This document shows, in pieces, positions 31,187 to 50,035 of a stretch of DNA of 64,000 nt (positions are counted from its first letter, which is position 1; the number at the start of each line of letters is the position of its first letter). The stretch is from assembly GCA_945893045.1 (NCBI GenBank), contig CAMDEA010000004.1, positions 40,717 to 104,716 of the forward strand, given 5' to 3'. This DNA is from Planctomyces sp. SH-PL62. GTDB lineage: Bacteria; Planctomycetota; Planctomycetia; Planctomycetales; Planctomycetaceae. The notes beneath the pieces are model-generated. The model was not told where the DNA came from, did no database searches, and saw only the letters and a list, made by a program, of their open reading frames with translations. The position numbers and the translations under genes are program-made.

Positions 31187-33430
31187 TTACACGTACCCGC
31201 GGAAGAGCCGGAGTGTCCAGTCCGCAGCCAGCAACACGCACAGCAGCAAGATCAGCGAAAAATTGTGCCAGAGGTCGAACGCTTGGCGGCGGACCACGGT
31301 TGTTGACGATCGCGAGTCGGAACCGATCCAACCATCGGTCAGGCTGGGATCGATCCGGCGTCCGCCAGTGGCACTCGCCCAGCGTTCGAGAACCGCGAAG
31401 TCCACCGGCGATCCATCGGATTCGTTTCCGCGAGGACTGACTTCGATGACGACCGCTGCCTCCGCCACGTTCTGGCCTTCGCTGCGAGCGGTCACTTCGA
31501 TGCGATAGCGTCCCGGTTGCGACGGCTCGAATTGCGCGGACGGCGAGGCACTCATCGGTTCGCGAGCTTGCAGCGCGAGAGGCAACCGTCGGCCATTCGG
31601 GAGGACGACGGTTCCCTCCAATGCCGGCGCGGCCGATTCTTCAACTGCGGAGATTTCCGTCGCGATCCGGATCGAATCGCCGACTCGATACTGCGTCTGT
31701 TCTGGCCGCAGGAACAATTGGCGGCGGGCCGACGTTTGCTCGGTAGGAGCCAAGGCTCGGAAGGCGTGCTGCCAGAACGCGGAATGCAGCGTCACGCCAT
31801 CATCCGTTCGAGGGCCGTGCGATTGCCAGCGCCACAAGGTGTCCGTGCCGATGAATAAGACCCGCCCGCGTCCGACGCTTTGTTCCGCGATCACCACCAG
31901 CGGACCATAGGCGTTTTGTTGGCCGGCCGTTTCCAAGAGCACCGTGGCCAGCGGGCGTTTGCGGAGCACCGGATAGACATGATCCAACGTCGGCAACGTT
32001 GCGGCGACTTCAGAGGTCGTCGCCTTGTTCTCCGTCAACGTGAACCACGAATTGGCTTTTCCTTCCGGGGTGAGCCGCACTTCGATTTGTCCGGAAATGG
32101 GAGTACCCGATTCGCGTGTCAGCTCCACCGGCAACAGGCGCGTCAGTTCGGGAGTATCAACCCATTCCTCCAGATGCGTGCCGGCCATCACCACCAGAGA
32201 TTTGCCTCCTTCCGTGACGGCTCCGTAGATATGACGGGCCAGGCCGCGCGGCCACGTCGCCGGCCGCACGTCGCCCAACACGAGCGTATCGAAGCCGTCG
32301 ATTTCGCTGCGGCTCTGCGGAAATCCTCCCAGCTTGACGCGGCGTTCCGGCTCGCCGAATTGCACGAACGCATTTTCGCCGCGCGACAACAGCGCCGTCA
32401 GGCTGAAGCTCGGATCATCTTCCAGCACACGGCGGAGGTATTTGAATTCCCACCGCCAACTGTCTTCGAGGATCAGCACATCGTGGCGATCATCGACCGC
32501 CTGCACGTTGACCGCATAAGCCTGATCGACCGACGTTTCGCCCTGCATCAACTGAAAGCGGTAGCGTTTGAGTCCCGCCTCTTTCGGTCGATGCGTGACG
32601 ATCGCGAACTGATCCTGCCCGGCAATCAATCCAGTCAATTCGCGCCGCTGGATTTCCTGGCCATCCTCTTCGACAACGAGCGTCAGCCGATCCAGAGCCT
32701 GATGCGGACGAACTGTGACCTGAAACGCCGTCTCCGATCCGATGAGCACGCGTTGCGCCGCTTGGACCAGCACAATTTCCGCAGACGTGGTTGCCGGTTG
32801 ATCGGAAGCTTTCGCCGGGGCCAGCACATCGAGCGACAACCCCAATTTGTTGGCAACGGCAACAACATCGGCGGAACTGCGATGTTGTCCGTCACTGACG
32901 ATCAGCGCGCGGCTCGGCGTGGCGGACGATTCACGCGACGCATTGAGTAGTCGCACGTAGTTCCAGGCCGACTTCAAACTCGCCGCGACATCGGTCCCCT
33001 CACCGCGAGGCGCGGCTTGATCGAGAGCCACTAGCGTGGTCGGATAGGCTCGCCGGTCGAACGTGAACCAGTGCAGCGCATGAGTCCGAGCGGCAGCCTG
33101 CATCGCCGGGCTGTTCGCGAGTTGTTGCTGCACGTCCTCGAAGCGTGTGCCGTTGACCGCTGGCGACGACATGCTCGCCGAAGTATCGACCAGCACCAGC
33201 AGACTGGGTGAATCGGCAACCGTCCGCGACACCGACAGCACCGGCTGAAACAAGCCCAGGACTAACAGCACGACCATGCCAATTCGTAGCACGGCCAACT
33301 GCACGATCGAACGTCGCGGAACGTGCTTCTGGATCAACAGCCGACTGCCAATCCATAACGCCCCGAGCAGTGCGAGGCCAATCAGCGCGATCAATGCGGG
33401 ATGCAAGACGGGAAAGAGCTGCCAGATCAT
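31187..33430 (-). CDS. Membrane-anchored vWA-like / glutamine-amidotransferase-like domain protein (Bat-operon type)
   Basis: The track ORF extends to 33583, but ATG 33430 shares its A with the upstream stop (TGATG). N-terminal TM segments MIWQLFPVLHPALIALIGLALLGALWI and VLRIGMVVLLVLGLF. MIDAS-like LLVLVDTSASMSS. GATase1-like DVLILEDSWRWEFKYL..FDTLVLGD..KSLVVMAG. C-terminal TM LILLLCVLLAADWTL. Confidence 0.85.
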   Translation of the reverse strand: MIWQLFPVLHPALIALIGLALLGALWIGSRLLIQKHVPRRSIVQLAVLRIGMVVLLVLGLFQPVLSVSRTVADSPSLLVLVDTSASMSSPAVNGTRFEDVQQQLANSPAMQAAARTHALHWFTFDRRAYPTTLVALDQAAPRGEGTDVAASLKSAWNYVRLLNASRESSATPSRALIVSDGQHRSSADVVAVANKLGLSLDVLAPAKASDQPATTSAEIVLVQAAQRVLIGSETAFQVTVRPHQALDRLTLVVEEDGQEIQRRELTGLIAGQDQFAIVTHRPKEAGLKRYRFQLMQGETSVDQAYAVNVQAVDDRHDVLILEDSWRWEFKYLRRVLEDDPSFSLTALLSRGENAFVQFGEPERRVKLGGFPQSRSEIDGFDTLVLGDVRPATWPRGLARHIYGAVTEGGKSLVVMAGTHLEEWVDTPELTRLLPVELTRESGTPISGQIEVRLTPEGKANSWFTLTENKATTSEVAATLPTLDHVYPVLRKRPLATVLLETAGQQNAYGPLVVIAEQSVGRGRVLFIGTDTLWRWQSHGPRTDDGVTLHSAFWQHAFRALAPTEQTSARRQLFLRPEQTQYRVGDSIRIATEISAVEESAAPALEGTVVLPNGRRLPLALQAREPMSASPSAQFEPSQPGRYRIEVTARSEGQNVAEAAVVIEVSPRGNESDGSPVDFAVLERWASATGGRRIDPSLTDGWIGSDSRSSTTVVRRQAFDLWHNFSLILLLCVLLAADWTLRLFRGYV

Positions 33431-35736
33431 CACGGCGTGGCTCCTTCCCGTTCGCGCAGTGGAGCGACAAAGCCGCGCCGGCGCTGATGCGAGGTGCTCA
33501 GTGCCGGATTCATTCGCGGACACAACCAGTGCGCCAAGAAAAACTCGGCGAGCAAGCAGAGGCATGCCAAGCTGATGAGCCACGGTTCCAGAGCCAGCCG
33601 ACGATCAACAGACGCGACTTTCGTGGCCGACGTATTCGGCTGCTCGATGCTGATTTCGGCGGGAGACCACCAAGCACGAAATTTGTCCGGCTCAATCGGT
33701 TCCAGACGGCTGTCAGCTCGGCCGGGTTGAACGACCAAAATCAACTCCGACTCCGCACCAGCGTGTGGCTGGATGTGGTAGAAGCCGGACTCTGCCGTGT
33801 CAGACAGCGTGAGCCACGCGCGATTCGACACCGAATGCACCGAACCTGACAACGCACGGCCAGCCGGCGAGATGACCCGCGGAGATCCGTTCGTGAGCGG
33901 CACGGCGCTAGCCGCCGGTGTCTGGCCCTGACCGGCGGCTAGCGCCGTGCCGCTCAAATGGGACTTGCCACGAACTTCCATCTCGGTCTCGAAAACTGAT
34001 TCCGGCAGCGCCACGGTGATCGTCTCACCGCAAGTTGCCTGACGTCGAAGTCCAGCCGATTGCAGATGCAGCAGCAGGCGATCCACGAGGGGCACGAAAC
34101 TTTTGCGGCGCGGCAGATCGCACCAGCGGTCATCGGCCGAGCCGTTGATCACGATCACGCGACCGGCTTCCACACTTCGCGCGATCAGGGCCGGAGTTCC
34201 GTCCTCCAACGTCGCCAGCACTTCATCGGTCGCCGTCAGCGAACCGAAACGATGCCACGCTCGCGACTCGGTGCCAGCCAGATCGCCCACCTCCGGATCG
34301 ACCAAGCCGGTCAGCAACGGGTGGCGATCGTTCCATTGTTTCCACGGCGATAACCCGCTTCGCTTCGCATCGGCTTGAACGCTTCCCGATAATTCCGCAG
34401 GCAGCAAGCTGTGCGTAGGATCGAGCGGTCGCACAAACGCTCGATTGTAAAGTTCCGTATCGACCGTCGGTCCGAGGAACATGGCCAAGCCGGCACCGCG
34501 ACGAACTCGTTCCGAGATCGCGGTGAATAACGCTTCGCTCAGACCGGGGACATCGGCCAACAGGATCACATCGGCCGACGCGATTTCCGCCGCCGACACG
34601 GTGATCGGAGTCTGGATCACCAGCCGTCCGTCAGCCGCCACCGAGCCGGTTTCCGCCAGCGAACGAATCGCCGTTTCCAATGCCAGACCGGGACGCACTG
34701 CGGCATCAACTCCAGCGCTGGGAGTGATCAGCAGCAGCCGCGGATCGCCGGCGCTGTCGAGATCGCAGAAATACACATCGTCATCGGGCAACTCATCCGA
34801 CGGTTCCAGTTTCAGCGTGACCAGACTTCCCTTCCGATCAAACGTCGTGGGCAATGGTAAGTCGAGCACCGTTCGTCGTCCCGGTTGCAAGGTCAGCGGA
34901 AACTCTTGTGGTTCGACGCCGGACAAACCGGAAACTCGCAGCGTTCGCTGCATGACGCCGTCACTGGTACAAGAGGCTTCCACATGCAGCACGGTTTCTG
35001 AATTTCGAGTTCGCAATCGTGTGGAGGTGAGCCAGGCATTCCGCGGCGCGGGCAAGCCGACATCGATCAATCGCAACGAGACCTTGGCTTGCTCGGCGAT
35101 CTCTCCAGCGAACATCGAAATCTCACTCGTGTTCCAGCCATTCGCAGGGTTGTCGGTCAGGAAGACGACTTCGACCTGGACTCCCGGACGCCGCTGTGCC
35201 AACAACGAACGAATCGGTTCAAACGCGGAGTCGAGCTGCGTCTCCGCCAGTCCCGATTGCAGACCAGATAACGCTGGCAGATACAGAGTGGCCTCGTTGG
35301 TCCACGGAGCCAGCACTTCGGTCGTGCTCCCCGTGAGCAGCACGGCCGTCCGATCTCCCGGCAGCGTTTTGCGGATCAGTTGCGAAGCGAGATCGCGCGC
35401 AGTCTCCCACGGAGTCGGACGTCCTTCGGCACGTCGCCCCATGCTGCGGCTGATGTCGAGCACCACGATGCGATCGAGACCGGTGGCCATTCCAGTCGGA
35501 GACCAGATCGGCCGCGAGAGAGCCAGCACCAGCAGCGTCAGAAATCCGGCTCGCAACAAGAACAGCAACACCTGATGCCACTGAATCCGCCGCGCCATCC
35601 GCTGCTGAGTCAGATGCAACCAACGCAAACTGCTGAACGGCGTCTGCCGCACATGCCGAGGCTTGAAGAGATGCACGACAATGGGAATGGCCAGCAAGAC
35701 CAGACCAAACAGCGCGCCGGAGTTTAAGAAGGTCAT
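33430..35736 (-). CDS. BatA-N (aerotolerance-regulator N-terminal, double-TM) / vWA domain protein
   Basis: MTFLNSGALFGLVLLAIPIVVHLFKPRHVRQTPFSSLRWL (BatA_N signature), second TM VLLFLLRAGFLTLLVLAL, vWA IVVLDISRSMG, C-terminal TM LISLACLCLLAEFFLAHWL. Confidence 0.88.
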   Translation of the reverse strand: MTFLNSGALFGLVLLAIPIVVHLFKPRHVRQTPFSSLRWLHLTQQRMARRIQWHQVLLFLLRAGFLTLLVLALSRPIWSPTGMATGLDRIVVLDISRSMGRRAEGRPTPWETARDLASQLIRKTLPGDRTAVLLTGSTTEVLAPWTNEATLYLPALSGLQSGLAETQLDSAFEPIRSLLAQRRPGVQVEVVFLTDNPANGWNTSEISMFAGEIAEQAKVSLRLIDVGLPAPRNAWLTSTRLRTRNSETVLHVEASCTSDGVMQRTLRVSGLSGVEPQEFPLTLQPGRRTVLDLPLPTTFDRKGSLVTLKLEPSDELPDDDVYFCDLDSAGDPRLLLITPSAGVDAAVRPGLALETAIRSLAETGSVAADGRLVIQTPITVSAAEIASADVILLADVPGLSEALFTAISERVRRGAGLAMFLGPTVDTELYNRAFVRPLDPTHSLLPAELSGSVQADAKRSGLSPWKQWNDRHPLLTGLVDPEVGDLAGTESRAWHRFGSLTATDEVLATLEDGTPALIARSVEAGRVIVINGSADDRWCDLPRRKSFVPLVDRLLLHLQSAGLRRQATCGETITVALPESVFETEMEVRGKSHLSGTALAAGQGQTPAASAVPLTNGSPRVISPAGRALSGSVHSVSNRAWLTLSDTAESGFYHIQPHAGAESELILVVQPGRADSRLEPIEPDKFRAWWSPAEISIEQPNTSATKVASVDRRLALEPWLISLACLCLLAEFFLAHWLCPRMNPALSTSHQRRRGFVAPLREREGATP
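33895..33955. repeat. Family E perfect 25-bp inverted repeat inside the BatA-like CDS
   Basis: gagcggcacggcgctagccgccggt (33895..33919) / accggcggctagcgccgtgccgctc (33931..33955); 11-nt loop. It encodes SGTALAAGQGQTPAASAVPL on the minus strand. A second, less perfect copy lies at 36814..36872. Confidence 0.9.
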
Positions 35737-36788
35737 CGTCGCACCTTGCTGCGCCGGTTCAAATACGCCGACAGCGCCTGATCGTAGGGCTGTCGAGTGT
35801 TGATCAAGTGATAGTCGATGCCGGCTTCCGCCAAACCTTTTCGATAGAACTCACCACTCTGCCGAACTTGTTCGAGATAGCCGTCGCGTACCGCCGCCGG
35901 ATCAATCTCCAACTCCTCACCGGTTTCCATGTCACGGAACTGAGTTGCTCCTTGAAACGGGAACTCCAGTTCGGCGGCATCCTGAAGATGGAACACGATC
36001 ACATCGTGCTTCAGACTGCGCAGTTGCCGGATGGCTCGCAGCGTTTGATCGGGGTCGTCGATCAAATCGCTGATGACGACGACCATCCCCCGCCGTTTGA
36101 GATTCCGCGCGATCTGCCGCAGGCTGCTCGGCATGTCGGTGCCACCAGCCGGCGGATTGTCGATCATCACGCGCATCATCTGACTCAGATGCGGTCGGCG
36201 GCAGCGGGGCTGCACCAACAGGCCCGGCTTCGTCCCGAACAACGCCAGCCCGCAAGCATCCTGTTGCCGCAGCACCAAATAACCCAGGCAACTGGCGAGG
36301 AAGCAGGCGTAATCCCATTTAGTCAGCAAGCCAGTGCCGAAGGCCATCGACGCGGAACGGTCCATGAGCAGATAGCAGCGGAGATTCGTTTCCTCTTCAA
36401 ACCGCTTGATGTAGTAATGGTCCGTGCGAGCATACAGATGCCAGTCGAGATACTTCAGATCGTCGCCGGCAACGTACTCCCGATGATCGGCGAACTCCAC
36501 GGAGAAACCGTGAAAGGGACTCTTGTGGAGTCCATTCAAAAAGCCTTCCACAACCAACCGTGCCAACAGCGGCGATAAGCCGATGCGAGCCAGCACTTCC
36601 GGTTGCAGATATTTTTCTGATGCGGTCCCAGGTAACCCTTCCGCCAAAACCGGCTGTCCCGTTTGCTGTGCCAGAGCCTGATGCAATTTCTGCATGAGCA
36701 CCGACGCTGCCGGACCAAGCTGCCGCCACCAAGCCGTTCGCGGCCCGGTTCGCTGCGGTGTGGTTAGAGGTTGAAGGCTTGTGGACAT
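35733..36788 (-). CDS. DUF58 domain protein (MoxR partner)
   Basis: FHGFSVEFADHREYVAGDDLKYLDWHLYARTDHYYIKRFEEETNLRCYLLMDRSASM. Track start TTG 36845 lies inside a REP element; I prefer ATG 36788 (MSTSLQPL). Confidence 0.9.
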   Translation of the reverse strand: MSTSLQPLTTPQRTGPRTAWWRQLGPAASVLMQKLHQALAQQTGQPVLAEGLPGTASEKYLQPEVLARIGLSPLLARLVVEGFLNGLHKSPFHGFSVEFADHREYVAGDDLKYLDWHLYARTDHYYIKRFEEETNLRCYLLMDRSASMAFGTGLLTKWDYACFLASCLGYLVLRQQDACGLALFGTKPGLLVQPRCRRPHLSQMMRVMIDNPPAGGTDMPSSLRQIARNLKRRGMVVVISDLIDDPDQTLRAIRQLRSLKHDVIVFHLQDAAELEFPFQGATQFRDMETGEELEIDPAAVRDGYLEQVRQSGEFYRKGLAEAGIDYHLINTRQPYDQALSAYLNRRSKVRR

Positions 36789-36813
36789 CGCGGCTATTCG
36801 TTGAAAGGGTTGT

Positions 36814-36872
36814 GAGCGACAAGGCGCTAGCCGTCGGTTCTTCAAAGACCGGCGGCTAGCGCCGTTCCGCTC
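36814..36872. repeat. Family E inverted repeat in the moxR-DUF58 gap
   Basis: gagcgacaaggcgctagccgtcggt (36814..36838) / accggcggctagcgccgttccgctc (36848..36872), with a few mismatches. Confidence 0.85.
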
Positions 36873-36888
36873 AATGAAGCGCCATCAC

Positions 36889-37896
36889 TTACTTCTTCCG
36901 CTCCGGCACGATTTCGAGAAGCCGGCGGACGATGTCGTCCGTCGTCGTCCCTTCGGCCTCGGCGGCGAAGCTGCACGAGAGACGATGACGCAGCACCGGG
37001 AGCGCCAGATGACGCACGTCATCGCACGACACGTTGATCCGACCATTCAACGCGGCGAGACACTTCGCACACAAGATCAGAGCTTGGCTGGCGCGGGGAC
37101 CGGCTCCCCAGGAGATCTGGTCCTCGATGAAATCCGGGACACCCGGTTCGCCCGGTCTCGTCGCGCGGACCAGATCGACGGCGTACTGCGTGACATGCTT
37201 CGATACGGGAAGACTCCGCACGAGCCTCTGCATGTTAAGGACGGTGTCTTGATCGCAGATCGGCTGAAGATCGACGGTCGCGTTCGACGTCGTCCGCTCG
37301 ACGATCTGTTCTTCTTCTTCCAAGCCGGGGTATTTGATGAACGTGTTGAGCAGGAAGCGGTCCTTCTGAGCTTCGGGCAACGGATACGTCCCTTCCTGAT
37401 CGATCGGGTTTTGCGTCGCCAGCACGAAGAACGGTTTTGCGAGCGGGTATGTCTTGCCGCCCGCCGTGACTTCATGCTCTTGCATCGCCTGCAACAGCGC
37501 GGCCTGCGTCTTCGGCGGCGTGCGGTTGATTTCGTCGGCGAGCACGATGTTGGTGAAGATCGGACCGGCCACGAACACCGTCACGCGCTTGCCGGTCGTG
37601 TGGTCATCCTCGATGACATTCGTTCCGACGATGTCCGACGGCATCAAGTCGGGCGTGAATTGGATGCGTTTGAAATTCAACGACAGCAGTTGGGCCAACG
37701 TGTTGATCATCAACGTCTTGGCCAGGCCGGGAACTCCTTCCAAGAGATTGTGCCCGCCGGCGAAGATCGTGATCAGCAATTCCTCCAGAACGGATCGCTG
37801 CCCGACGATCGCACGGGACATGCCGTCCAACATGCGGGTGTGAAGGTCTTTCAATTGCGCTAAATCACGCTCGATGTCGGCAGGTTCGTTGTTCAC
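36889..37896 (-). CDS. moxR: MoxR-like AAA+ ATPase
   Basis: GQRSVLEELLITIFAGGHNLLEGVPGLAKT (Walker A), NIVLADEINRTPPKTQAALLQAMQE (Walker B), FVLATQNPIDQEGTYPLPEAQKDRF. Track start 37971 translates the AATGACGAA palindrome (MIRHSDFVIPSSLGTSSFVI); I prefer GTG 37896 (VNNEPADIERD). The start is uncertain. Confidence 0.93.
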   Translation of the reverse strand: MNNEPADIERDLAQLKDLHTRMLDGMSRAIVGQRSVLEELLITIFAGGHNLLEGVPGLAKTLMINTLAQLLSLNFKRIQFTPDLMPSDIVGTNVIEDDHTTGKRVTVFVAGPIFTNIVLADEINRTPPKTQAALLQAMQEHEVTAGGKTYPLAKPFFVLATQNPIDQEGTYPLPEAQKDRFLLNTFIKYPGLEEEEQIVERTTSNATVDLQPICDQDTVLNMQRLVRSLPVSKHVTQYAVDLVRATRPGEPGVPDFIEDQISWGAGPRASQALILCAKCLAALNGRINVSCDDVRHLALPVLRHRLSCSFAAEAEGTTTDDIVRRLLEIVPERKK

Positions 37897-37908
37897 GGTG
37901 GGACTTTC

Positions 37909-38041
37909 AGAAATGACGAATGACGAAGTACCCAATGACGAAGGAATGACGAAATCCGAATGACGAATCACGATGGTGGGGCCCTGATTTGGGTTTCGTC
38001 ATTCGGATTTCTTTCGTCATTGGGTATTTCGTCATTCGTCA
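37909..38041. repeat. Long imperfect palindrome built from tandem AATGACGAA / TTCGTCATT motifs
   Basis: Five AATGACGAA-type motifs on the left (37909..37967) and four TTCGTCATT on the right (37994..38041), around the centre tcacgatggtggggccctgatttggg. It fills the gap between the DUF4159 gene and moxR. Confidence 0.9.
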
Positions 38042-38046
38042 CTTTC

Positions 38047-41330: not shown

Positions 41331-44116
41331 GGCCGCTCTCCCGGAGATGACCCGTCGATGAAGTTGCTCAGCCAATGCAATTCTTCGTCGGAGACGGCGC
41401 GCACTTGGAACCCGTCGATCTCGCACGCTCCGGTCAGCAGATAACTCATCACGATGCGGCCATCCAAAGCTTGCGGTGGGGCATCAAGCATGTATCCCAC
41501 TTTCCGCCAGGCTCCATACGTCCGCTCCACGAAGTAGGTGCTGGTCCCTTTCACGGGGACCGTGTCGTTGCCTTGGCCGTAAAGGCTCAGCGAAACGTGC
41601 GAGTTGAATCCGGGATACGCCGTCAACAAGTCTTCGCGATACCAGCATTCGACCCAGTAATGACCGCTCGTGGTCAGGTTCGGCAACGGACGTTCGAGCG
41701 TCAGGTATCCCAGATAAACCGGATGAGCTTCCAGCAATCCAACGTGCGGTCCCGACAGCCCCAGGCCGCGCGCGAACTTCAGATTGACCGGCTTGCCGAA
41801 CCACTGCGGTTCTTCCGGCTCGAAGCCACTGACGACATCGGCGAACGGCGGCAACTTCGGCGAACCTCCGTCCGTCGGAGGGACAGCGCGAGCCAGACGT
41901 TCCTCGAACTGTTTCTTGCGATCGGCCAATTTCTCTTTCTCGAAGTATTTGGGAAATGCCTGTTCCAGTTGAGCGAGCCGTTTCAGTGCTTCAGTCATCT
42001 GACCCATGCGAACCAGACATTCCGCCATGCCATGCAGCGTGCGGTCTCGATAGCCGGCCCACTGTCGCAGTTGCAGCAAGACTTCGTAGTTCCGCAGCGA
42101 GGCGTCGTACTTTCCGGCGACACGATCCGCCTCGGCTCGCAGGAAGCGATACAAGCCTTCGAGCTTTTGATCCGGGTAATTCAACTCAATCTTGTCGAGC
42201 AACAACCGAGTCTCGCGGATGTCTCCCGTCCGCAGTTTTTGTTCGGCGACTCGCAACAGCGCCCCGCGTGTGACCGCTTCGGATTGCGCGGTCGCCAGGA
42301 ATGCGTCCCCGCCCAACGTGGCGGCTATGCGGTACAGCTCGCCGGCCGCTTTGATCTGGCCGGCTTCCGCGAACAGGTCGCCGCGGTGGATCGCCACGAG
42401 GCGCATGTCGGGATGTTCGAGGCGACGATGCTTTTCCAAGATCGCGTCGAATCGCCGCGCCGCTTCATCCAGGTCTTTGAATTGCCGATGCACGATGTCC
42501 GTCGCCGTCAGTTGGATTCCCACTTGCAGCGTCGGCAGCTTGTTGAATTCTTGATTGGCCTGTTCGAGCACCTTCTCCATCTCGGCTTTGCGACCGTTGT
42601 GTCCCAGAGCGGTGATCAACGACTTGAACAACTCGGCGCGAAATTGCGGATCGAGTCCCAGTGCGGCCAGGCGATGCTTCGCCAACTTTTCCAGGAGCGG
42701 CCAACGCTCCGGTGCTTCCGACGACATCAGCAGATCCAAGATCCGATCCTGCCGCTCGGCCGAAAGCTTTTCGACTTGAACGTCGGCCGCTAATTCTCGA
42801 ATGACGTATCGCATGGAAAACGGACTGATCGAACCCGGTGCTCCCCACACATGCACTCGGCGCTGAAACTGCGGCAACGATCCTCCGCCCGACAACGTCA
42901 CCACATAATCGCCGGGAGCAAAGAAAACATGCCGCACGCTCCGGCCGACCGCTTCCGTGCCGTCGCCGAAATTCCACTTGAGTTGAGTTTCCTCCGGCAA
43001 ATCCCCCTGAGCTTCAAAGCGGACGAGATACAGCGTCGAATCGCCAGACGTCACCAGCGAATCATCAATGCCGTAACCAAACGACGCGCCGGTATTTGGA
43101 CCGGCCACTTCCAACGTGGCGACGTGAGCGTAATCCGGATGCACGAACATGTCGCGCGGCACATAGGCCCAGACTTTCGCGGCCGGCGGAACCCACAACA
43201 ACGAACATCCGCCGTAAGTGCCGGGGCTTTCCTTCAGCACATGAAACATCTCGATGGGATGCACGCCGGCCTTCAGTTCAATCTCCGCTCCGATGGACTT
43301 CGTCGGAATCGAACCGGTCAAGCGTTGATTCGATCCGGGCCGGTCGCAAACTTTGAAGCCGTCGATGAAGAGAAACGACGCGTCCTCAGAGTTCACGAAG
43401 AACCGATACACGCCGTCGGCTTTGATATTCAAGTGCCCGCGATACGTCACCGCGTAATCACGCGGATTGGCCGGGCGAACGGGATTGCTGTTCTGTACCA
43501 TCTCCGAGACAAGCCCATTCGCCACGACGGGGTCGCTCTTCGTCAGCCCGTCGCGAACCGCCGTCCAATTGGAAATGTCGGTCCCCTTCCAGTCACGAGC
43601 CTCCAGGACGATCCCTTCGGGAATCGGCGCGGCGGCTGCCGGCGGCGCGGCGGGATTTCTGGCATGAACCCAGTACCAGACGTCCGCCCCATGCCGCGGA
43701 AATTGAATCAGCGTGTCTCCATGAGGAGCATGAGACAGCACAGCCACCGGCAGCGCAGTTCCATCGGCACAGACGACCGCGACATCCGATCCATCAGGCT
43801 TCAACCAGCCACCGGTTGGCAACCGAGCCACGATTGACTTCGATGTCGATTGCGCCGGACTCAAACCCATCAGTCGGAGCGTGTATCGCAACTGATAACC
43901 ATCGAGCCAAGCGGGCTGTTTCTCCGGCAACAGTTCGACGACGTTCTTCTGCGGCTCGGCAGGCGCTGCGGTGGCCTGTGCGAAAGCCGCAACCAAGTAA
44001 CCCGAAGCGTGAGCGAGGGCGAGCGCTCCAAGCAGCATGAATTTCGACAGCATCCGCGTCACGTGGCGCATCCGCCCTCGCTCACGCTTCGGGTTACATG
44101 TCGAATACCACTGCAT
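41327..44116 (-). CDS. Secreted PA14 - PKD - TPR-rich protein
   Basis: PA14: YRGHLNIKADGVYRFFVNSEDASFLFIDGFKV..GVHPIEMFHVLKESPGTYGGCSLLW. PKD: LKWNFGDGTEAVGRSVRHVFFAPGDYVVTLSG. A long TPR-like helical region follows. The track ORF runs to 44176 and would overlap the upstream gene by 52 nt. I prefer ATG 44116, which has GAGG upstream and lies 8 nt after the upstream stop; ATG 44071 or 44053 are also possible. Confidence 0.82.
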   Translation of the reverse strand: MQWYSTCNPKRERGRMRHVTRMLSKFMLLGALALAHASGYLVAAFAQATAAPAEPQKNVVELLPEKQPAWLDGYQLRYTLRLMGLSPAQSTSKSIVARLPTGGWLKPDGSDVAVVCADGTALPVAVLSHAPHGDTLIQFPRHGADVWYWVHARNPAAPPAAAAPIPEGIVLEARDWKGTDISNWTAVRDGLTKSDPVVANGLVSEMVQNSNPVRPANPRDYAVTYRGHLNIKADGVYRFFVNSEDASFLFIDGFKVCDRPGSNQRLTGSIPTKSIGAEIELKAGVHPIEMFHVLKESPGTYGGCSLLWVPPAAKVWAYVPRDMFVHPDYAHVATLEVAGPNTGASFGYGIDDSLVTSGDSTLYLVRFEAQGDLPEETQLKWNFGDGTEAVGRSVRHVFFAPGDYVVTLSGGGSLPQFQRRVHVWGAPGSISPFSMRYVIRELAADVQVEKLSAERQDRILDLLMSSEAPERWPLLEKLAKHRLAALGLDPQFRAELFKSLITALGHNGRKAEMEKVLEQANQEFNKLPTLQVGIQLTATDIVHRQFKDLDEAARRFDAILEKHRRLEHPDMRLVAIHRGDLFAEAGQIKAAGELYRIAATLGGDAFLATAQSEAVTRGALLRVAEQKLRTGDIRETRLLLDKIELNYPDQKLEGLYRFLRAEADRVAGKYDASLRNYEVLLQLRQWAGYRDRTLHGMAECLVRMGQMTEALKRLAQLEQAFPKYFEKEKLADRKKQFEERLARAVPPTDGGSPKLPPFADVVSGFEPEEPQWFGKPVNLKFARGLGLSGPHVGLLEAHPVYLGYLTLERPLPNLTTSGHYWVECWYREDLLTAYPGFNSHVSLSLYGQGNDTVPVKGTSTYFVERTYGAWRKVGYMLDAPPQALDGRIVMSYLLTGACEIDGFQVRAVSDEELHWLSNFIDGSSPGERP
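43997..44097. repeat. Family B inverted repeat, perfect 23-bp arms
   Basis: gtaacccgaagcgtgagcgaggg (43997..44019) / ccctcgctcacgcttcgggttac (44075..44097); 55-nt loop. It encodes CNPKRERG...LAHASGY at the N-terminus of the PA14 gene. Confidence 0.93.
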
Positions 44117-44124
44117 TCCACACC

Positions 44125-44829
44125 TCACTGCGGCTCGTAAGTGATCCGCAACTTCCAAAGTTTGGCACCATTCCAAAATGGCGAATGCGTGCGGAACCAG
44201 CCCATCGCTTCATCGGTTGTGATCTGCCAGCCGAAATTCGGAACGGTTCCCGAATACCACAACTCGACGTCTTCCGTGACGTTGAAAGTATGCTCGCCCG
44301 CGCCTTGGATTGAAGCCGAGGCCGTCGCCTTGACGGCTCGGTCTTGTCCCAGCCCCAAGGCACCTGGTGTGTGCCATTCCAAACGATTGGGTCGCGTGAT
44401 GCGATACTGGTGTGAGACGCCCGCACCCCAGCCCTGCAAGATACGGCGAACCTGCACGCGAACGCCGGTCGCGGGATAGACCTGAGCGTACGGCACGACC
44501 CATTCCGCCTTTGTGATCCGCTGACCGGGCGGAATCTTTTCGAGCGGATAACGGATCAGGAACGACGTCTTGGGAGTCAGGTCAATCTGATGATTGCCAT
44601 ATTCTCCGTTGGCATTCACGACCGCCGCCCAACTCATCCGCGGAGCATCCTCCGAGATCGCGGCCATCAGTTCGCAATCGGCGTCGGTCAGCACGATCGT
44701 CTTCGCCGACGCGGTTGATGCCATCAGGACGAGCAGCAGCACAGCCAAGTAGCCACGCTCGCCAAGAGCGTGGGTTCTCACGAATTCGCCCACGCTCTTG
44801 GCGAGCGTGGCTACCGAAGGATGACTCAC
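44125..44829 (-). CDS. Small secreted Trp-rich beta-sandwich-like protein (possibly DNRLRE-type domain)
   Basis: GTG 44829 forms a GTGA overlap with the upstream stop. Hydrophobic core AVLLLVLMASTASA. The body (RITKAEWVVPYAQVYPATGVRVQVRRILQGWG..NRLEWHTPG..FNVTEDVELWY..WQITTDE) resembles accessory carbohydrate-binding/DNRLRE-like modules. The functional call is weak. Confidence 0.65.
   Translation of the reverse strand: MSHPSVATLAKSVGEFVRTHALGERGYLAVLLLVLMASTASAKTIVLTDADCELMAAISEDAPRMSWAAVVNANGEYGNHQIDLTPKTSFLIRYPLEKIPPGQRITKAEWVVPYAQVYPATGVRVQVRRILQGWGAGVSHQYRITRPNRLEWHTPGALGLGQDRAVKATASASIQGAGEHTFNVTEDVELWYSGTVPNFGWQITTDEAMGWFRTHSPFWNGAKLWKLRITYEPQ
44749..44814. repeat. Family C REPIN: perfect 26-bp arms, GTAG...CTAC termini
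   Basis: GTAG-CCACGCTC-gccaa-GAGCGTGG-g (44749..44774) / c-CCACGCTC-ttggc-GAGCGTGG-CTAC (44789..44814). It covers codons 6-27 of the small secreted protein gene. Confidence 0.93.
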
Positions 44830-46235
44830 GGCATCTTCTCCACGGGGACATACAGCTTGCCGAACTTCGGCGACCAGGCGATCGCTTCGACCGTCGGGTT
44901 ATTGACCGTCATCTGCACGGCCGACGGTTTGAATTTCCCTTCGGCGTCCAAGTCGATCAGACAGATGCGCCCATTCGCTCCGATCGCCAACTGATTGGCT
45001 TTTTCCAAGACCAACGGAGTGCTGTAATACACGAAGTTGTCGTTGGTCATGGTCTGCGGGGCCAGCGTGAGTTGCCCATCGGCGTGCTCCATCCGATTGA
45101 TGCGTCCGTCGTAAATCAGCGTTGCGATATAGATCGACGGAACGGTCGGATGCACGGCGACTCGGTAGCGATACGCGGCATACGGCTGAACGTAGAAATA
45201 ACAGTAGCGCCCCAATCGGTCGGAGAGCACCCAACTGACCGGACCGGAGTGACCCGCCAGAAAAACGGCATCGTCATTGAAGGGGGCGTAGCTGTACGGA
45301 GCCGGCACACTGGCGAACGAGTAGGTGGTCGCCTCCATGTACTTTCGCAAGACGAGCGGCTGCCCGGCGGCTTTCGATTGTTCGATGGCCGCGAGCTTCG
45401 CGATTCGCGCCGCATTGGCGGCAACAGGATCAAGCGGCGGAAGCGGCACGATGGGCTTCACATCTTCCGGCGGCGAATTCGGCGGAGCGAAGGCCGGCAA
45501 TCCGTCGGGATCGAGCACGAACCAGCCGATGGTCGTGACCAGTTTCTTCGTGCGATCCAGTTGCTGCATGTTGGGAACGTACAACCGCGTTATCGCCGAG
45601 TTCAGCGCGAATCCGCCAGCCAGCGCTCCGCAACTGAAGTCCGCTCCGCGCGCCGTGGCGAAGATGAGCTTCGGTTGCGGTTCGTCGAGACCGTAGATCA
45701 ACAGATGATCGAACTCGGCCGAGACGGCCGGATCGGTCCGCTTGTCGTCGGGCAACGGTTCGACATCGTGCCAGACATAAAGCAGCGGCAGCCGAGGATG
45801 ACACAGCAGACCGAGCACATGGTTCGGTCGCGCACTCAACGCAGCCGGCTTCGGCAACGTGATCGTCACCGGATCGCCGGCAACGATTTGTCCCTGAGCA
45901 TCCAATCGGAAGAGCGACACATGCGCTGGAGATTTCGGACGATGCGCCACGGCGAGCACGCCGGCGACATCATTGACCGCGACATGCCTTGCAGCCGGAG
46001 CAACCACGGTGGCCACAAACGGCAACGGAGTTTCCGGGACGGTGCGCACGCGAATTTCACGCTGCGCGAATGCGGGATTGGCCGCACTGATGAAGCAAAA
46101 CAAGACCGCAACGGCCCGCTTGAATTCTGGCAGAACGATGTGGGCAGAACGATGGGAAGAAAATGATTGAGTCACCTTGTTTGACTGCATCATTCTTGTT
46201 CCCATCGTTCTGCCCACATCGTTCTGCCAATTCAC
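44826..46235 (-). CDS. Secreted protein, beta-propeller-like (lactonase/YncE-style repeats)
   Basis: Recurrent blade-end motifs CHPRLPLLYVWHD, AITRLYVPN, VHPTVPSIYIATL, WSPKFGKLYVPVE. Signal-like FKRAVAVLFCFISAANPAFAQ. GTG 46235 overlaps the upstream stop (GTGA); alternative ATGs at 46193 and 46190 lie in the loop of the palindrome. Confidence 0.7.
   Translation of the reverse strand: MNWQNDVGRTMGTRMMQSNKVTQSFSSHRSAHIVLPEFKRAVAVLFCFISAANPAFAQREIRVRTVPETPLPFVATVVAPAARHVAVNDVAGVLAVAHRPKSPAHVSLFRLDAQGQIVAGDPVTITLPKPAALSARPNHVLGLLCHPRLPLLYVWHDVEPLPDDKRTDPAVSAEFDHLLIYGLDEPQPKLIFATARGADFSCGALAGGFALNSAITRLYVPNMQQLDRTKKLVTTIGWFVLDPDGLPAFAPPNSPPEDVKPIVPLPPLDPVAANAARIAKLAAIEQSKAAGQPLVLRKYMEATTYSFASVPAPYSYAPFNDDAVFLAGHSGPVSWVLSDRLGRYCYFYVQPYAAYRYRVAVHPTVPSIYIATLIYDGRINRMEHADGQLTLAPQTMTNDNFVYYSTPLVLEKANQLAIGANGRICLIDLDAEGKFKPSAVQMTVNNPTVEAIAWSPKFGKLYVPVEKMP
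46128..46229. repeat. ~100-bp hairpin with perfect 31-bp arms made of tandem GCAGAACGATG motifs
   Basis: tggcagaacgatgtgggcagaacgatgggaa (46128..46158) / ttcccatcgttctgcccacatcgttctgcca (46199..46229); 40-nt loop that contains ATGATG on the minus strand. Confidence 0.93.
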
Positions 46236-49200
46236 GGCATTCGATCCGGTGCCGCCAACCGTTGGTAGTAGGTCTTCACGGCCTCTTCGTAACCCGGCGG
46301 AACGGATCGCGCGGGGTCATCCAGGACGTTGCCACGGACACGCTGTTCGCGGGGCAGACTCGCCTGGAATCCTGAGTGGGCCTGGTGAAACACCTGCAAC
46401 ACGCCGCGAACTCGTTCGAACGTCTGCTGCTGCAAACGAAAAATCTCCGCCGATGGCCGATCGTTGAGGCTGTGCAGGTTCGCCTGCATCTGGTCAATCA
46501 ATTGGTCGAGGTGTTCGGTCGGCAGATAAAGATTCTTGAGGTCTTTGCGGATCGTCTTCAGTCGCTCGATGATCTGTTCCTGCTTGCCGTTCATGTCGCG
46601 CATCATTTCGGCGACGCTGGCATCGAGTTTCCCGCCCTGACGTTCGACGATCGAATTCTTTGCTTGCGGCTTGTCCATCCGATTGATCATGTCGTCGGTC
46701 CATTCGCCGACATCGCTGAGACTGAACTTGGCGTCATCCGATTCCACCTTCCGTCCACCGATGCCGGTCGAGGTGTCAGATTGCGGATCGTTGCTCTTGG
46801 TTTCTTTGACCGTGTCCTTCTGGTCGGGGACACGATCCTGGCCTTCCTGGACTTTGTCTCGGCCACGGCGATTGATCGATTCATTGCCGACGGCCACGCC
46901 ATGAGCACGCGCCCCTTGCCGACCGATGCGCGACGCTCCGCCGACATTTGTCGTGGGAGGTTTTTGATTGCCGGTCGCTGACGCGGCGGCCGTCGAGTTC
47001 AAATCGCCACCCTGCTTGCCGACGTCGCCCTTCTCGTTGATGTTGAAAGCCGCGTTGAGATTGTAGGTCTCGTAGTTCTCCTTCATCGCGTCTTCTTCTT
47101 CGAGCAGATCGCCGACGAGGTCTTCGAACTTTTCCTGAATGTGCGGCTTGACCTTGTTCCCTTTGCGATCGGATTGGTTCGGGAAGCTTGGTTCGCCACC
47201 GGGAGTTTTCGCCAGGCTGAGATTCTTGAACTCCTGCCGCATCCCTGTGTCTGCTCGCTGCAATCCCGGCACCGCGCTATCGGGAAAGAGATAGTCGTTG
47301 GGCTTCGATTCGTCGTCCCCTTCGCCCTTTTTCTTTTTCTGTTGAGCCACTTCCGCCTGATGAATGATCTCTTCCAGCTTCAACCCGTCGGGTTCATCGA
47401 GCCGATCGTCGGAGTAGCCTTCCTTCAGCTTGCCCAACTCGGCCTGACGGTCGAGCTGGCTCTTGTCGAGTTGGTCTTTCTCCGCCAACAGCTTTCTCGC
47501 CGCTTCCGTCATTGCCTCGCGCAGCTTCGTGTAGATGTCCTCCAGCGCGGCCGCCGCTTGTGTCTGTTGCTGAGCCGCCAGCGACCAGTTTTGCGCTTCG
47601 ATCGCTGATTGAGCCGACTTCTGCATCGCGAGCAACACATCACCGACTAACGCATCGGCGGTTTGAGCAAACGCTTCGCTCAACGGCGACTCGGATTCCG
47701 CAGCTCGTTCGGCCAGCCCGGAAAACGCGGTGGCGGCCAATCCGCACAGTTCGATGAGTTTTTGCTGCCGTCGCGCGGCCGTGACGTGCGTGTTTGGCGA
47801 GCCGGAGGGCGTTAGCCCCCGGACAGTTGAATCGGAATCCGTCCGGGGGCTAACGTCCACCGGCTCGCCTGTTCGATCCGCGAATCGAACCGATTGATCC
47901 CGCAGAATCGCCTGCCGATCAGCGAGCATCCGCAGGAACGGCGTCATGTGGGCCAATTCCCATTCCTTGCGAAAGTGCATGTACTGCTTGTGAATCTCGC
48001 CCAGACTTTGCAGCGTCCGAGCCATTGTGGCTCGCGCGTCGGCAAATGAGGTGCGACGACCGGCCGCGTCATCTCGCGTGGCCACGCTGTCCAATACTCG
48101 AATGGCTCGGATCATTTCCGAATCCGCCAGCATCGCGACTGACAACCGCAAGCTGCCGGCCGGAGGTGCCATCTCGCGAGCGATCCGGCCGGCCGTTTGT
48201 CGCAGTTGATCCTGTGTCTTGGAATGCTCCGCCGCTTCCATGACCAGTGCCTTCACCCGTTCCGGAACATTTCCATCGGCGGCAGGATCGGCATCGAGCT
48301 TGCGAATCAGCACATCGAGCGCCGCATGAAGTTTCTGCTCGACCGCAATCGCGCCCGCGATCTCCGCTTCGGATTTCAGAATCTGCTCGTACAGCAACTG
48401 CAACTGCGAACCATCGCCCGTCATGAGCAACAAGTGCGTGGTTCCTGTCGTCCATGTCTCGGCACGATCCGGCCGCGCATCCGATGCACGAGCGGCCAAC
48501 TCAATTCGATCGCCTTCCGAAACTCCAAAGGTGATCGGCGTGATTTCGACAGGATTCGTTGTCTGCCGAGCGTTGCCTGCCGGCCAAGTTTGAAGCGCGA
48601 TCCAACCGTCATCCTCCATCGGCTCTGCGTTGACGTTGATCTTCACCTTGCGGAAAAACAGCCCGGTGCGTGACAGCCCAATGTCATCCAGCGCATCCAC
48701 CTGCAACGCCATCGCCGAGTCGATCGGCAACTCGCCGTTCGTCGGCAGTCCCGTCAACGTCGGGCGCGGGAGTTCATCGGCCACGGTTCGGATGTTGAAC
48801 CAAGCACTGAGATGCGGAGGTCGATTGGCTCGCTCCGTTTCCAGCGCGTACTCAGTGACGTTCGCAAACGTCAGTTCGCCAGAAAACTCGGTCGCACTGA
48901 GCTTCTTCAATTCGATGTCACCCGAAGCGTGAGCGAGGGAGGATGTTTCCGCATGGTGGTCGGCGGCGACTGGAAGACTCACTCCCTCGCTGACGCTTCG
49001 GGTGACATGGTGATTCGCGTCGTCGGTTGAAGATGCCGAACCTTCCCGCAGCCGCAACCGGACTGCTTCCACCGGTTGATCGAACACGAAATTCAGTTGT
49101 GCTTGGGTTCCTTCGAGCGCCTCCAGATCGCCGCTGGTCTGCACCGACTTGTCGGGCAGTCGCGTGTACTCTGGAAAGTGGTAGTTCACCTCGACCGATT

Positions 49201-50035
49201 GCAGCCGAGCCGGCGTCGGCACCTCGATCCGGTAATACGGACTGGTGAAGTCACCGCCATGCACGGCGTAGGACAGACTCCGCTGAATGTTGCGAAGGGT
49301 GTAAGTCACCGTCTCGCTGTGGACCGAAACCAACTGCGTGCTCCGACGATTCTGTTCGTCGAGAAGAATCGAGATTTCAGCGGGCCGCTCACCGAGAATC
49401 CGCACACGGATCTCGACATCGCCCGACGCTTCGATATTTCCCGGTTCCACCTCCAGCCGTGTCCGATAAACCGGATCGACGGAAGCGAATGGCAGCAGAA
49501 TCCGTTTAGCGGAACTCGCAAACCGCTGAGGCTGCCACATCCAACCAATCGCGGCGATGGCGGTGAATGTTCCCGCCAAAGCCAACCACATCGCGGCCGG
49601 TTGAACTGCGACGGCCGCCGGCAACCGCAGTTGAGAAAGCTGGCGGCAATTCTCCTGAACGAGTGCCGGTGCCAAGGCGTACTGTCCCTGCGCCGACTCA
49701 CGGCTTAACTGCAACGTGTTGATCAGCCGGTTCTGAATCTGACCGGCGAACCGCCGCTCGATCGCCAAGGCAATTTCATCGACAGTCGCATGACGCTCGT
49801 GCCAGCGCTGCGCCAGACTTCGTCCAAACCAAAACAGGACGACCGCGAGACCGCTTGCCGTCGCCAATCGCCCCCATATGGGGAGATGCACGAGGTTGTC
49901 CACCAGCACGGCGAGTAAGAAGTAGCCCCAGACGGCGGACAGAGTCCAACCCAAAGCCCCCAACAGATTCCAGCGCTGCCAGCGCGTGCGTTGCGATTCC
50001 ATCAAATGTCGCAGGCCATCAATGCGATCAATCAT
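46232..50035 (-). CDS. Large two-TM membrane protein with long charged coiled-coil region (DUF4175-like architecture)
   Basis: ATG 50035. TM segments WNLLGALGWTLSAVWGYFLLAVLV and LATASGLAVVLFWFG, followed by DEIALAIERRFAGQIQNRLINTLQL. Long acidic/basic low-complexity and coiled-coil tracts. C-terminus PPGYEEAVKTYYQRLA. The family assignment is from memory of the architecture and is tentative. Confidence 0.85.
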   Translation of the reverse strand: MIDRIDGLRHLMESQRTRWQRWNLLGALGWTLSAVWGYFLLAVLVDNLVHLPIWGRLATASGLAVVLFWFGRSLAQRWHERHATVDEIALAIERRFAGQIQNRLINTLQLSRESAQGQYALAPALVQENCRQLSQLRLPAAVAVQPAAMWLALAGTFTAIAAIGWMWQPQRFASSAKRILLPFASVDPVYRTRLEVEPGNIEASGDVEIRVRILGERPAEISILLDEQNRRSTQLVSVHSETVTYTLRNIQRSLSYAVHGGDFTSPYYRIEVPTPARLQSVEVNYHFPEYTRLPDKSVQTSGDLEALEGTQAQLNFVFDQPVEAVRLRLREGSASSTDDANHHVTRSVSEGVSLPVAADHHAETSSLAHASGDIELKKLSATEFSGELTFANVTEYALETERANRPPHLSAWFNIRTVADELPRPTLTGLPTNGELPIDSAMALQVDALDDIGLSRTGLFFRKVKINVNAEPMEDDGWIALQTWPAGNARQTTNPVEITPITFGVSEGDRIELAARASDARPDRAETWTTGTTHLLLMTGDGSQLQLLYEQILKSEAEIAGAIAVEQKLHAALDVLIRKLDADPAADGNVPERVKALVMEAAEHSKTQDQLRQTAGRIAREMAPPAGSLRLSVAMLADSEMIRAIRVLDSVATRDDAAGRRTSFADARATMARTLQSLGEIHKQYMHFRKEWELAHMTPFLRMLADRQAILRDQSVRFADRTGEPVDVSPRTDSDSTVRGLTPSGSPNTHVTAARRQQKLIELCGLAATAFSGLAERAAESESPLSEAFAQTADALVGDVLLAMQKSAQSAIEAQNWSLAAQQQTQAAAALEDIYTKLREAMTEAARKLLAEKDQLDKSQLDRQAELGKLKEGYSDDRLDEPDGLKLEEIIHQAEVAQQKKKKGEGDDESKPNDYLFPDSAVPGLQRADTGMRQEFKNLSLAKTPGGEPSFPNQSDRKGNKVKPHIQEKFEDLVGDLLEEEDAMKENYETYNLNAAFNINEKGDVGKQGGDLNSTAAASATGNQKPPTTNVGGASRIGRQGARAHGVAVGNESINRRGRDKVQEGQDRVPDQKDTVKETKSNDPQSDTSTGIGGRKVESDDAKFSLSDVGEWTDDMINRMDKPQAKNSIVERQGGKLDASVAEMMRDMNGKQEQIIERLKTIRKDLKNLYLPTEHLDQLIDQMQANLHSLNDRPSAEIFRLQQQTFERVRGVLQVFHQAHSGFQASLPREQRVRGNVLDDPARSVPPGYEEAVKTYYQRLAAPDRMP
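47804..47861. repeat. Family D inverted repeat inside the DUF4175-like CDS
   Basis: cgttagcccccggac (47810..47824) / gtccgggggctaacg (47841..47855), perfect; extendable to 21 nt with 2 mismatches; 16-nt loop. It encodes VSPRTDSDSTVRGLTPSG. Confidence 0.88.
48917..49006. repeat. Family B inverted repeat inside the DUF4175-like CDS (90 bp)
   Basis: gtcacccgaagcgtgagcgaggg (48917..48939) / ccctcgctgacgcttcgggtgac (48984..49006). It encodes VTRSVSEGVSLPVAADHHAETSSLAHASGD in frame. Confidence 0.9.

Follow-up and report, generated by a model that had tools for sequence, protein, structure and literature searches.

On which proteins does a Bat-type MoxR ATPase act, and can the genes that accompany it supply candidates? 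A locus of Planctomyces sp. SH-PL62 raises this question in a concrete form. Within the 64,000-nucleotide stretch that we analysed (contig CAMDEA010000004.1 of assembly GCA_945893045.1; hereafter the window), positions 31187-50035 are filled by ten co-directional open reading frames (ORFs) on the minus strand, g1 to g10. The last four encode a MoxR AAA+ ATPase (g7), a DUF58 protein (g8) and two membrane proteins with von Willebrand factor A (vWA) domains (g9 and g10); the first six encode a large inner-membrane protein (g1), four exported proteins (g2 to g5) and an exported DUF4159 protein (g6). We propose, with a probability of roughly 0.4, that the cluster is an extended Bat-type MoxR/vWA cell-envelope system carrying a glycan-binding module. 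The cluster itself is confirmed, and the interpretation given in the preliminary description is partly supported. We class it as a Bat-type MoxR/vWA envelope operon to which a conserved module of four proteins, with predicted glycan binding, has been added. The preliminary description of the locus knew of no described function for the extended gene set; we likewise found no publication on it, and no literature combining these genes. In the literature searched, DUF4159 appeared in the Pfam database paper, and none of the DUF4175 papers found was about this system.

Do the ten genes belong together? The g5 gene was used as the search anchor because it is central in the operon. It has homologues in 55 clusters among 5.8 billion proteins, and a nine-sequence g5 alignment, searched with one genome per GTDB species, yielded 38 loci. 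With the ten proteins as tblastn queries, the full set was found in the same order in metagenome-assembled genomes (MAGs) labelled Planctomycetota, Chthoniobacterales/Spartobacteria (Verrucomicrobiota) and Lentisphaeria, with g4 and g5 swapped in the Lentisphaeria loci. Identity to the distant loci is 27-46% for g1-g5, g9 and g10, and 63-80% for g6-g8 (69-80% between g7 orthologues across phyla). The MoxR gene g7 stands directly after g6 in 20 of the 22 loci with enough downstream sequence, and g1-g5 precede the g6-g7 pair in nearly all loci with enough flank; at L021, g1 is not upstream. The gene set is one conserved unit and not a chance neighbourhood. It is PVC-wide (Planctomycetes-Verrucomicrobia-Chlamydiae) but rare, and all the carriers found are uncultured MAGs from aquatic habitats. 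An absence of synteny elsewhere between the accessory genes and the core is refuted by these loci, in which all ten genes keep their order in three phyla. Since the cluster is found in three phyla, the specificity to planctomycetes that had been proposed for it is wrong: Chthoniobacterales/Spartobacteria and Lentisphaeria carry it too.

The junctions between the genes recur as well. Those of the window, with the coordinates of the ten genes, agree with the preliminary description: g2/g3 is a GTGA overlap (read from the sequence), g3/g4 an 8-nucleotide (nt) gap, g4/g5, g5/g6 and g8/g9 are ATGA overlaps, and g9/g10 is a TGATG. The GTGA overlap described at g1/g2 is conditional on GTG 46235 as the start of g2; two other starts, ATG 46205 and ATG 46193, are equally plausible and give a gap of 26-38 nt. 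The g6/g7 gap is about 150 nt long with GTG 37896 as the start of g7, which yields 335 amino acids (aa), in line with the orthologue lengths of 331-335 aa, and the g7/g8 gap is about 100 nt long. The six boundaries that have tight junctions (-4, -1 or +3 nt) do not change between the three phyla, and g6/g7 and g7/g8 are always gapped across loci. Fixed stoichiometry and co-translation, which had been deduced from the overlaps, exceed what the data can carry: two junctions are gapped and bear hairpins, close relatives have insertions of 180-840 nt where the window has overlaps, and rearranged variants of the cluster exist (L010, L042 and L009). The hairpins, too, speak against taking the overlaps for a rigid stoichiometric coupling.

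What distinguishes the cluster is the addition of g2-g5; g1 and g6 are not new kinds of protein. To speak of six uncharacterised envelope proteins, as was done initially, overstates the novelty: g1 is DUF4175-like, g6 is a DUF4159 protein, and g3-g5 have recognisable glycan-associated folds. Nothing meaningful was returned when g2 and 12 orthologues were compared with Pfam. Its AlphaFold2 model, built with 35 homologues, has a predicted local distance difference test score of 87 and a predicted template modelling score of 0.86, and shows a seven-bladed beta-propeller with one helical insert, for which Foldseek found WD40, YncE and 1ri6-like matches. The g2 family is real but rare: when 1.84 billion cluster representatives were searched exhaustively with HMMER, 265 matched the g2 profile, 163 of them at E <= 1e-30. 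Three relatives of g2 (P0297 at L043, P0315 at L044 and P0311 at L045) are fused to an N-terminal CBM9 or a C-terminal Laminin_G_3 domain, and these fused forms still adjoin g1, in two of the three loci also g3. At L045, g1 and the g2-LamG fusion form a pair, without g3-g6 alongside.

The remaining three exported proteins are recognisable at the level of domains. Against the DNRLRE model NF033679, g3 scores 33.4 bits for a curated cut-off of 34 (E 4e-8), and 13 of 13 g3 orthologues match the model (best E 2.7e-10). The DNRLRE domain relates to the alginate-binding CBM96 and is found in disaggregatase, in S-layer proteins and in several polysaccharide lyases (PMC9971899). The g4 product is made up of an N-terminal domain, a PA14 domain, a PKD domain, a TPR region of about 300 aa and a C-terminal region without a family match, and its PKD domain matches ColH and its PA14 domain 6qdi. 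The g5 product matches Beta_helix/NosD, with a weak N-terminal match to G8, and has the invariant motifs DNTG...ER and CD across its homologues. The labels initially given to these proteins, a secreted propeller-like protein (g2), a small beta-sandwich (g3), a PA14-PKD-TPR protein (g4, with a weak TPR match) and a parallel beta-helix (g5), were borne out, that of g3 with a score just short of the cut-off. The fusions of g2 relatives to CBM9 or Laminin_G_3, the relation of DNRLRE to CBM96, the combination of PA14 with PKD and the beta-helix are the reasons to link the four proteins to glycans. On these sequence and model grounds, the folds of g2-g5 are all of kinds associated with the recognition or processing of glycans, and glycan binding is predicted for them.

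If g2-g5 handle glycans, the cluster might instead be a catabolic locus for the capture and degradation of polysaccharides, in which g5 would be a secreted beta-helix lyase or hydrolase and g2-g4 would be binders, all serving growth on glycans from algae or other sources in the environment, with the MoxR genes as a mere aid to folding or maturation. The folds of g2-g5 and the aquatic origin of the carrier MAGs suit this idea. So does the closest solved structure to g5, a fucoidan lyase, although the match is non-significant (E 0.04), and no significant relative turned up when the PDB was searched with sequence profiles of g1, g2, g3, g5 and g10. At one Lentisphaeria locus, L023, the gene directly upstream of g1 (2814-4082) encodes a GH29 alpha-L-fucosidase, and a sulfatase adjoins the g1-g2 pair at L045 (4241-5710); these are, however, single instances, because the flanking genes differ between loci. 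The Methanosarcina disaggregatase and the alginate, hyaluronate and pectate lyases with DNRLRE/CBM96 similarly combine a beta-helix with a DNRLRE sandwich, whereas here the two are on separate polypeptides (g5 and g3) and no catalytic family is assigned. Moreover, the conserved set holds no catalytic family of glycoside hydrolases (GH) or polysaccharide lyases (PL), no transporter, no sulfatase and no regulator, and the generic Beta_helix/NosD match is all that could place it among polysaccharide-utilisation loci. Its largest proteins are scaffold-like membrane proteins, and an identity of 63-80% for g6-g8 across phyla would be unusual for a substrate-specific locus. We consider a catabolic locus unlikely.

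We turn to the core of the proposed extended Bat-type system. The g7 product matches AAA_3 with 204 bits and AAA_lid_2 with 69 bits, and its Walker A (GVPGLAKT) and Walker B (LADEINR) motifs are intact; we take it to be of the MRP type in the scheme of Snider and Houry. [quoted passage not shown] The g9 product matches PF07584 (BatA_N, E 1.7e-14), TIGR02226 (E 3.7e-17) and VWA_2 (E 2e-14), with a DISRS MIDAS motif and a long middle region between the vWA domain and the C-terminal TM segment. In g10 a weak VWA_2 match is accompanied by a DTSAS motif whose MIDAS residues are invariant, by a weak match to BatB (3ibs), by Ig-like (immunoglobulin-like) C-terminal domains and by a possible GATase1-like middle domain. 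Of the "vWA/GATase-like" label that g10 had received, the vWA part therefore stands (VWA_2 and MIDAS), and the GATase-like part has behind it one weak DUF4350 match in one orthologue. The MoxR, DUF58 and BatA-N/vWA labels of g7, g8 and g9 were confirmed by the family scans, as were nearly all labels when the products were scanned with hidden Markov models.

Next to the core stands g6, which is better conserved than any other accessory gene (its mean column identity between phyla is 76%) and has an invariant Pro-rich N-terminus. It reaches 231 bits against DUF4159 (PF13709; cut-off 25.9) in two stretches, in agreement with its description as a double-DUF4159 protein, and its second domain matches PDB entry 4i66 at E 5e-15, the one solved structure of the family, without assigned function. 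A search of plasmids for DUF4159 gave one Gemmatirosa protein without MoxR neighbours. By hydropathy, g2-g6 have N-termini that resemble Sec-type signal peptides, g9 and g10 have two N-terminal TM segments (a basic hairpin) plus one at the C-terminus, and g7 and g8 have none; this agrees with the earlier statement that all products except MoxR and DUF58 carry a signal peptide or TM segments. The vWA domain of the BatA-type protein BB0173 of Borrelia has been shown experimentally to be exposed to the periplasm (PMC5700661), and by this analogy, as by the positive-inside rule, a periplasmic position is expected for the large domains of g9 and g10 too.

How far does the likeness to Bat operons go? 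As in the operons of B. fragilis (BatI), R. anatipestifer (bat), Borrelia (bb0170-bb0176) and Leptospira (bat), a MoxR with intact Walker motifs adjoins a DUF58 protein, BatA-type vWA proteins have an N-terminal double TM segment and a MIDAS, a partner contains TPRs, and the genes are organised as an operon. Unlike in those operons, MoxR is not the first gene, g1-g6 are attached, and g9 and g10 are about 750 aa long with extra Ig-like or GATase1-like regions; neither BatD nor BatE-type (SH3) components were found in the ten products with Pfam and NCBIfam. The comparison gives no mechanism, because the biochemical function of Bat is not established. Another likeness is to the RL3499-RL3502 operon of Rhizobium leguminosarum, which presumably encodes a MoxR, a DUF58 protein, a membrane protein with BatA_N and DUF4159, and a DUF4175 protein. 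This domain repertoire would equal that of g7, g8, g9, g6 and g1. The Rhizobium operon differs in having four genes, without g2-g5 and a second vWA protein, and the DUF4159 protein is here a separate, exported one with two domains. [quoted passage not shown]

Does g1 also belong with the core? At E <= 1, neither g1 nor ten of its orthologues matched any Pfam model, that of DUF4175 (PF13779) included. The profile of the g1 orthologues nevertheless matches seven proteins with a PF13779 annotation (E 1e-39 to 1e-29 for six of the seven), and hhalign aligns residues 6-525 of g1 with one of the annotated proteins, P0118 (99.8%, E 4.5e-30). A C-terminal motif, PPGYEEAVxxYYxRL in g1, is common to P0118 and P0139 in the form P-x-(G/E)Y-x-x-(A/L)V-x-x-YY. 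Like DUF4175-type proteins, g1 has N-terminal TM helices, a long extracytoplasmic region that includes low-complexity sequence rich in Gly and Gln, and the C-terminal motif. As profile, hhalign and motif agree, the label "DUF4175-like" of the preliminary description is right at the superfamily level, even though Pfam gives no match. The hydropathy scan finds one TM segment (residues 27-45), and two further helices (about 57-72 and 146-167) were read from sequence and model. Between TM2 and TM3 lies a conserved segment of about 70 aa (residues 73-145), in common with DUF4175-type proteins, which is probably cytoplasmic, with about 1100 residues outside the cytoplasm. In the AlphaFold2 model of a 78%-identical protein (P0066), the TM helices are followed by three to four Ig/FN3-like sandwiches, a helical bundle of about 300 residues, a nearly invariant Gly/Asn/Arg-rich stretch of low model confidence and C-terminal helices, and its Foldseek matches were all generic: strings of Ig, FN3 and macroglobulin-like folds.

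A locus outside the set with g2-g5 speaks to the same point. In a Verrucomicrobiae MAG (GCA_022072455.1, L041), an overlapping operon encodes MoxR, DUF58, BatA/vWA and vWA proteins and then a 2057-aa g1-like protein, whose N-terminal ~500 residues are homologous to g1 residues 12-543 (hhalign 99.7%). Order and stop/start overlaps of the g7-g10 equivalents are the same as in the window, whereas the g1-like gene is downstream, and DUF4159 and g2-g5 are absent. Its MoxR is only 56% identical to g7, and belongs to a different clade. As the L041 operon ends in a g1-like protein, g1-type proteins would be regular partners of the MoxR core, and g1 would belong with that core. That DUF4175 proteins accompany MoxR in general is unconfirmed here: L041 supports it, and the loci of two DUF4175-annotated proteins (L039 and L040) had no MoxR operon.

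How might the components work together? In the general model of MoxR-vWA pairs an AAA+ ring and a MIDAS-vWA adaptor act on a client (PMC7159879), and such pairs are described as remodelling dedicated clients (PMC9976466, PMC13036017, PMC3893208). NorQ/NorD, RavA/ViaA and CbbQ/CbbO are characterised pairs of this kind. Their clients are cytoplasmic or membrane enzymes, which undergo metal insertion or inhibitor release, whereas the presumed clients here are mostly extracytoplasmic, so that the engine would reach them only via short cytoplasmic segments. We infer that g1, g6, g9 and g10 form a scaffold of the periplasm and inner membrane, with g9 and g10 as BatA-type components, g1 as the DUF4175-like anchor and g6 as a soluble member. 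The g7 ATPase and the MIDAS-bearing DUF58 adaptor g8 would be the cytoplasmic engine, which would contact the short cytoplasmic stretches conserved in g1, g9 and g10 and, at the expense of ATP, assemble or remodel the scaffold, just as other MoxR-vWA pairs do with their clients. This scaffold might in turn recruit g2-g5 through MIDAS-peptide and TPR-peptide contacts, for which two invariant segments are candidate docking peptides: the Pro-rich N-terminus of mature g6 and the Gly/Asn/Arg-rich stretch of g1. Peptides of this sort are typically read by TPR, propeller and MIDAS domains. Engine and adaptors look intact, g7 having its Walker motifs and g8, g9 and g10 each a DxSxS MIDAS motif. The candidate interaction motifs of g6 and g1 do not vary between phyla, and that of g1 has low model confidence. 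The complex could then bind or process polysaccharide, either that of the cell's own envelope or one captured from outside. One might speculate further that the cluster is an unrecognised, PVC-specific, ATP-powered trans-envelope machine, in which g7 and g8 are a motor that assembles or actuates a glycan-handling complex of g2-g5, in the periplasm and at the surface, via the cytoplasmic segments of g1, g9 and g10, but this stronger version is rather doubtful.

Several findings weigh against the extended Bat-type system with a glycan-binding module. None of the ten products was placed in a catalytic GH or PL family by scans with Pfam and NCBIfam. The published phenotypes of Bat and MoxR mutants are stress or aerotolerance defects and not glycan-related ones (PMC5700661). 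The topology has its basis in hydropathy, the positive-inside rule and the analogy with BB0173. Surface exposure is unsupported because the cluster has no outer-membrane component or transporter; the surface assembly of the preliminary description is not upheld on this account, and its maturation by MoxR and vWA proteins could at most be inferred. Finally, two loci (L010 and L042) are exceptions with g1-g6 only and no adjacent MoxR core, in a third (L009) g1-g3 are inverted, and a fourth (L018) has the g4-g5 pair alone.

Some of these findings would be expected if g7-g10 were a generic Bat system for stress or aerotolerance, with a role in the homeostasis of the envelope or of redox state, and g2-g5 its passengers, which would leave two or three neighbouring but independent units (g1-g3, g4-g6 and g7-g10). 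The stress-related phenotypes, the absence of the adjacent core in L010 and L042, the inversion in L009 and the hairpin-bearing gaps at g6/g7 and g7/g8 all point that way. Independent units would hardly, however, keep g6 and g7 side by side in 20 of 22 loci and three phyla while the accessory genes diverge to 30-45% identity, and L041 couples a g1-like protein to the core although g2-g6 are absent there. Nor did any locus with full flanks have close orthologues of g7-g10 and lack g1-g6, among loci that were, it must be said, fetched via g5. Such a set of passengers and separate units seems improbable to us.

The combination of MoxR, vWA and propeller proteins also recalls the MoxR-vWA-beta-propeller ternary systems of biological conflict, in which the cluster would serve in defence, and g7 weakly matches the bpMoxR model of such systems (E 2.4e-8). 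That match amounts to 34 bits, against 204 bits for AAA_3, and the P-loop is GVPGLAKT and not the GXXXTAKS variant (PMC7159879). In addition, the g2 propeller is exported, Pfam detected no effector domains or effector-associated domains (EADs), PADLOC matched none of the ten proteins, and the gene content is fixed across phyla, unlike the variable components of conflict systems. A role in conflict is thereby largely refuted, and only a very small chance is left to it.

The hairpins mentioned above belong to a set of long inverted repeats of 60-135 nt in several sequence families. Nine of the 13 found in the window lie within the 18.8-kb operon (Table 1), and we presume them to be akin to REP (repetitive extragenic palindromic) elements or to Rickettsia palindromic elements. 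The one in the g6/g7 gap folds as RNA with -78.6 kcal/mol (z = -11.6). The g7/g8 gap has one as well, four extend over the 5' ends of g2, g3, g4 and g5, and two within g1 and one within g9 are in frame; both sites in g1 are places where the orthologue alignment has insertions specific to a lineage. Since hairpins cover their 5' ends, the start codons of g2-g5 are uncertain. Where the window has its ATGA overlap at g5/g6, two close relatives (L003, 1670-2047; L006, 4547-4846) have a palindromic insert of 300-380 nt that is rich in AATGACGAA repeats and resembles the g6/g7 element of the window.

Table 1. Genes, palindromic elements and upstream region of the g1-g10 cluster, in window positions.
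Feature	Position	Strand	Description
g1	46232-50035	-	1267 aa, inner-membrane, remote DUF4175 relative
g2	44826-46205	-	exported 7-bladed beta-propeller with helical insert; start codon uncertain
g3	44125-44829	-	exported 234-aa DNRLRE-domain (CBM96-like) beta-sandwich
g4	41327-44116	-	exported, 929 aa, PA14-PKD-TPR
g5	39648-41330	-	exported, 560 aa, right-handed beta-helix
g6	38047-39651	-	exported, double DUF4159
g7	36889-37896	-	MoxR AAA+ ATPase
g8	35733-36788	-	DUF58, vWA fold
g9	33430-35736	-	BatA-type membrane vWA protein
g10	31187-33430	-	second membrane vWA protein
Region upstream of g1	50036-50261		divergent intergenic region, likely promoter region
Palindromic element	33894-33956		inverted repeat in operon
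Palindromic element	36813-36873		inverted repeat in operon, g7/g8 gap, GGCGCTAGCCGCCGG family
Palindromic element	37911-38044		inverted repeat in operon, g6/g7 gap, 134 nt
Palindromic element	41224-41297		inverted repeat in operon
Palindromic element	43994-44100		inverted repeat in operon
Palindromic element	44749-44814		inverted repeat in operon
Palindromic element	46128-46229		inverted repeat in operon
Palindromic element	47796-47869		inverted repeat in operon
Palindromic element	48915-49008		inverted repeat in operon
Palindromic element	3628-3782		inverted repeat outside operon
Palindromic element	16602-16655		inverted repeat outside operon
Palindromic element	22565-22648		inverted repeat outside operon
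Palindromic element	26036-26126		inverted repeat outside operon

The cluster is flanked by a divergent plus-strand gene from about position 50262 and a convergent plus-strand gene that ends at 31057. In the region upstream of g1 there is a single sigma-70-like match (50130-50101, minus strand); promoter and terminator scans gave match counts at chance level, and Rfam had no match anywhere in the window. The G+C content is even across the window, and so gives no sign of recent acquisition. An eleventh ORF at the start of g1 (50032-50388, 118 aa) was discounted as a gene because its Arg/Ser-rich translation is junk-like and it collides with the divergent gene. The convergent gene (25886-31057), which runs towards g10, encodes a product of 1723 aa that has CxxCH haem-binding motifs at its C-terminus; by tblastn, part of this product aligns with the PA14 region that g4 orthologues have at other loci, and its N-terminal region includes a copy of the ACCCGAAGCGTGAGCGAGGG palindrome. 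On the minus strand, 52465-55677 and 55731-59507 are tandem genes of 1070 and 1258 aa with similar N-terminal halves, which look like paralogues; the product of the former has a faint CsgG-like match (E 0.013).

The other loci show some further peculiarities. Non-repetitive inserts of about 650-850 nt occur at g3/g4 in L005 and L004, and in L005 also at g5/g6 and g8/g9. In L015 (2856-6812), and at the same place in L016, an extra 1318-aa ORF without a Pfam family lies between g3 and g4, and L015 has additional small ORFs in the g6/g7 and g8/g9 gaps. The labels of these two MAGs (Klebsiella, Proteobacteria) look wrong, their proteins grouping with those of Chthoniobacterales-labelled loci. More generally, the titles Kuenenia stuttgartiensis, Klebsiella sp. 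or Akkermansia muciniphila of L001, L015, L018 and L029 are probably binning or naming errors, because the proteins group with Planctomycetota- or Verrucomicrobiota-labelled loci. The lone g5 paralogues in L011, L020 and L022 are second copies in MAGs with the full cluster, and the neighbours of these genes and of the g4-g5 pair in L018 gave no functional hint. A 1896-aa ORF in L018, considered as a fusion of g4 and g5, was rejected, g4 and g5 being in different frames.

Bat-type operons occur in several bacterial phyla, and their mutants have stress, virulence or envelope defects, with no client established. In the present cluster the core is joined, in three phyla, by an unvarying set of exported proteins whose folds can be interpreted, and this offers concrete candidate clients and motifs for docking, within the practical limit that its carriers are uncultured aquatic MAGs. 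If the trans-envelope machine considered above should prove real, a Bat-type MoxR, for which no substrate has been identified since 1999, would have its first known clients in g2-g5.

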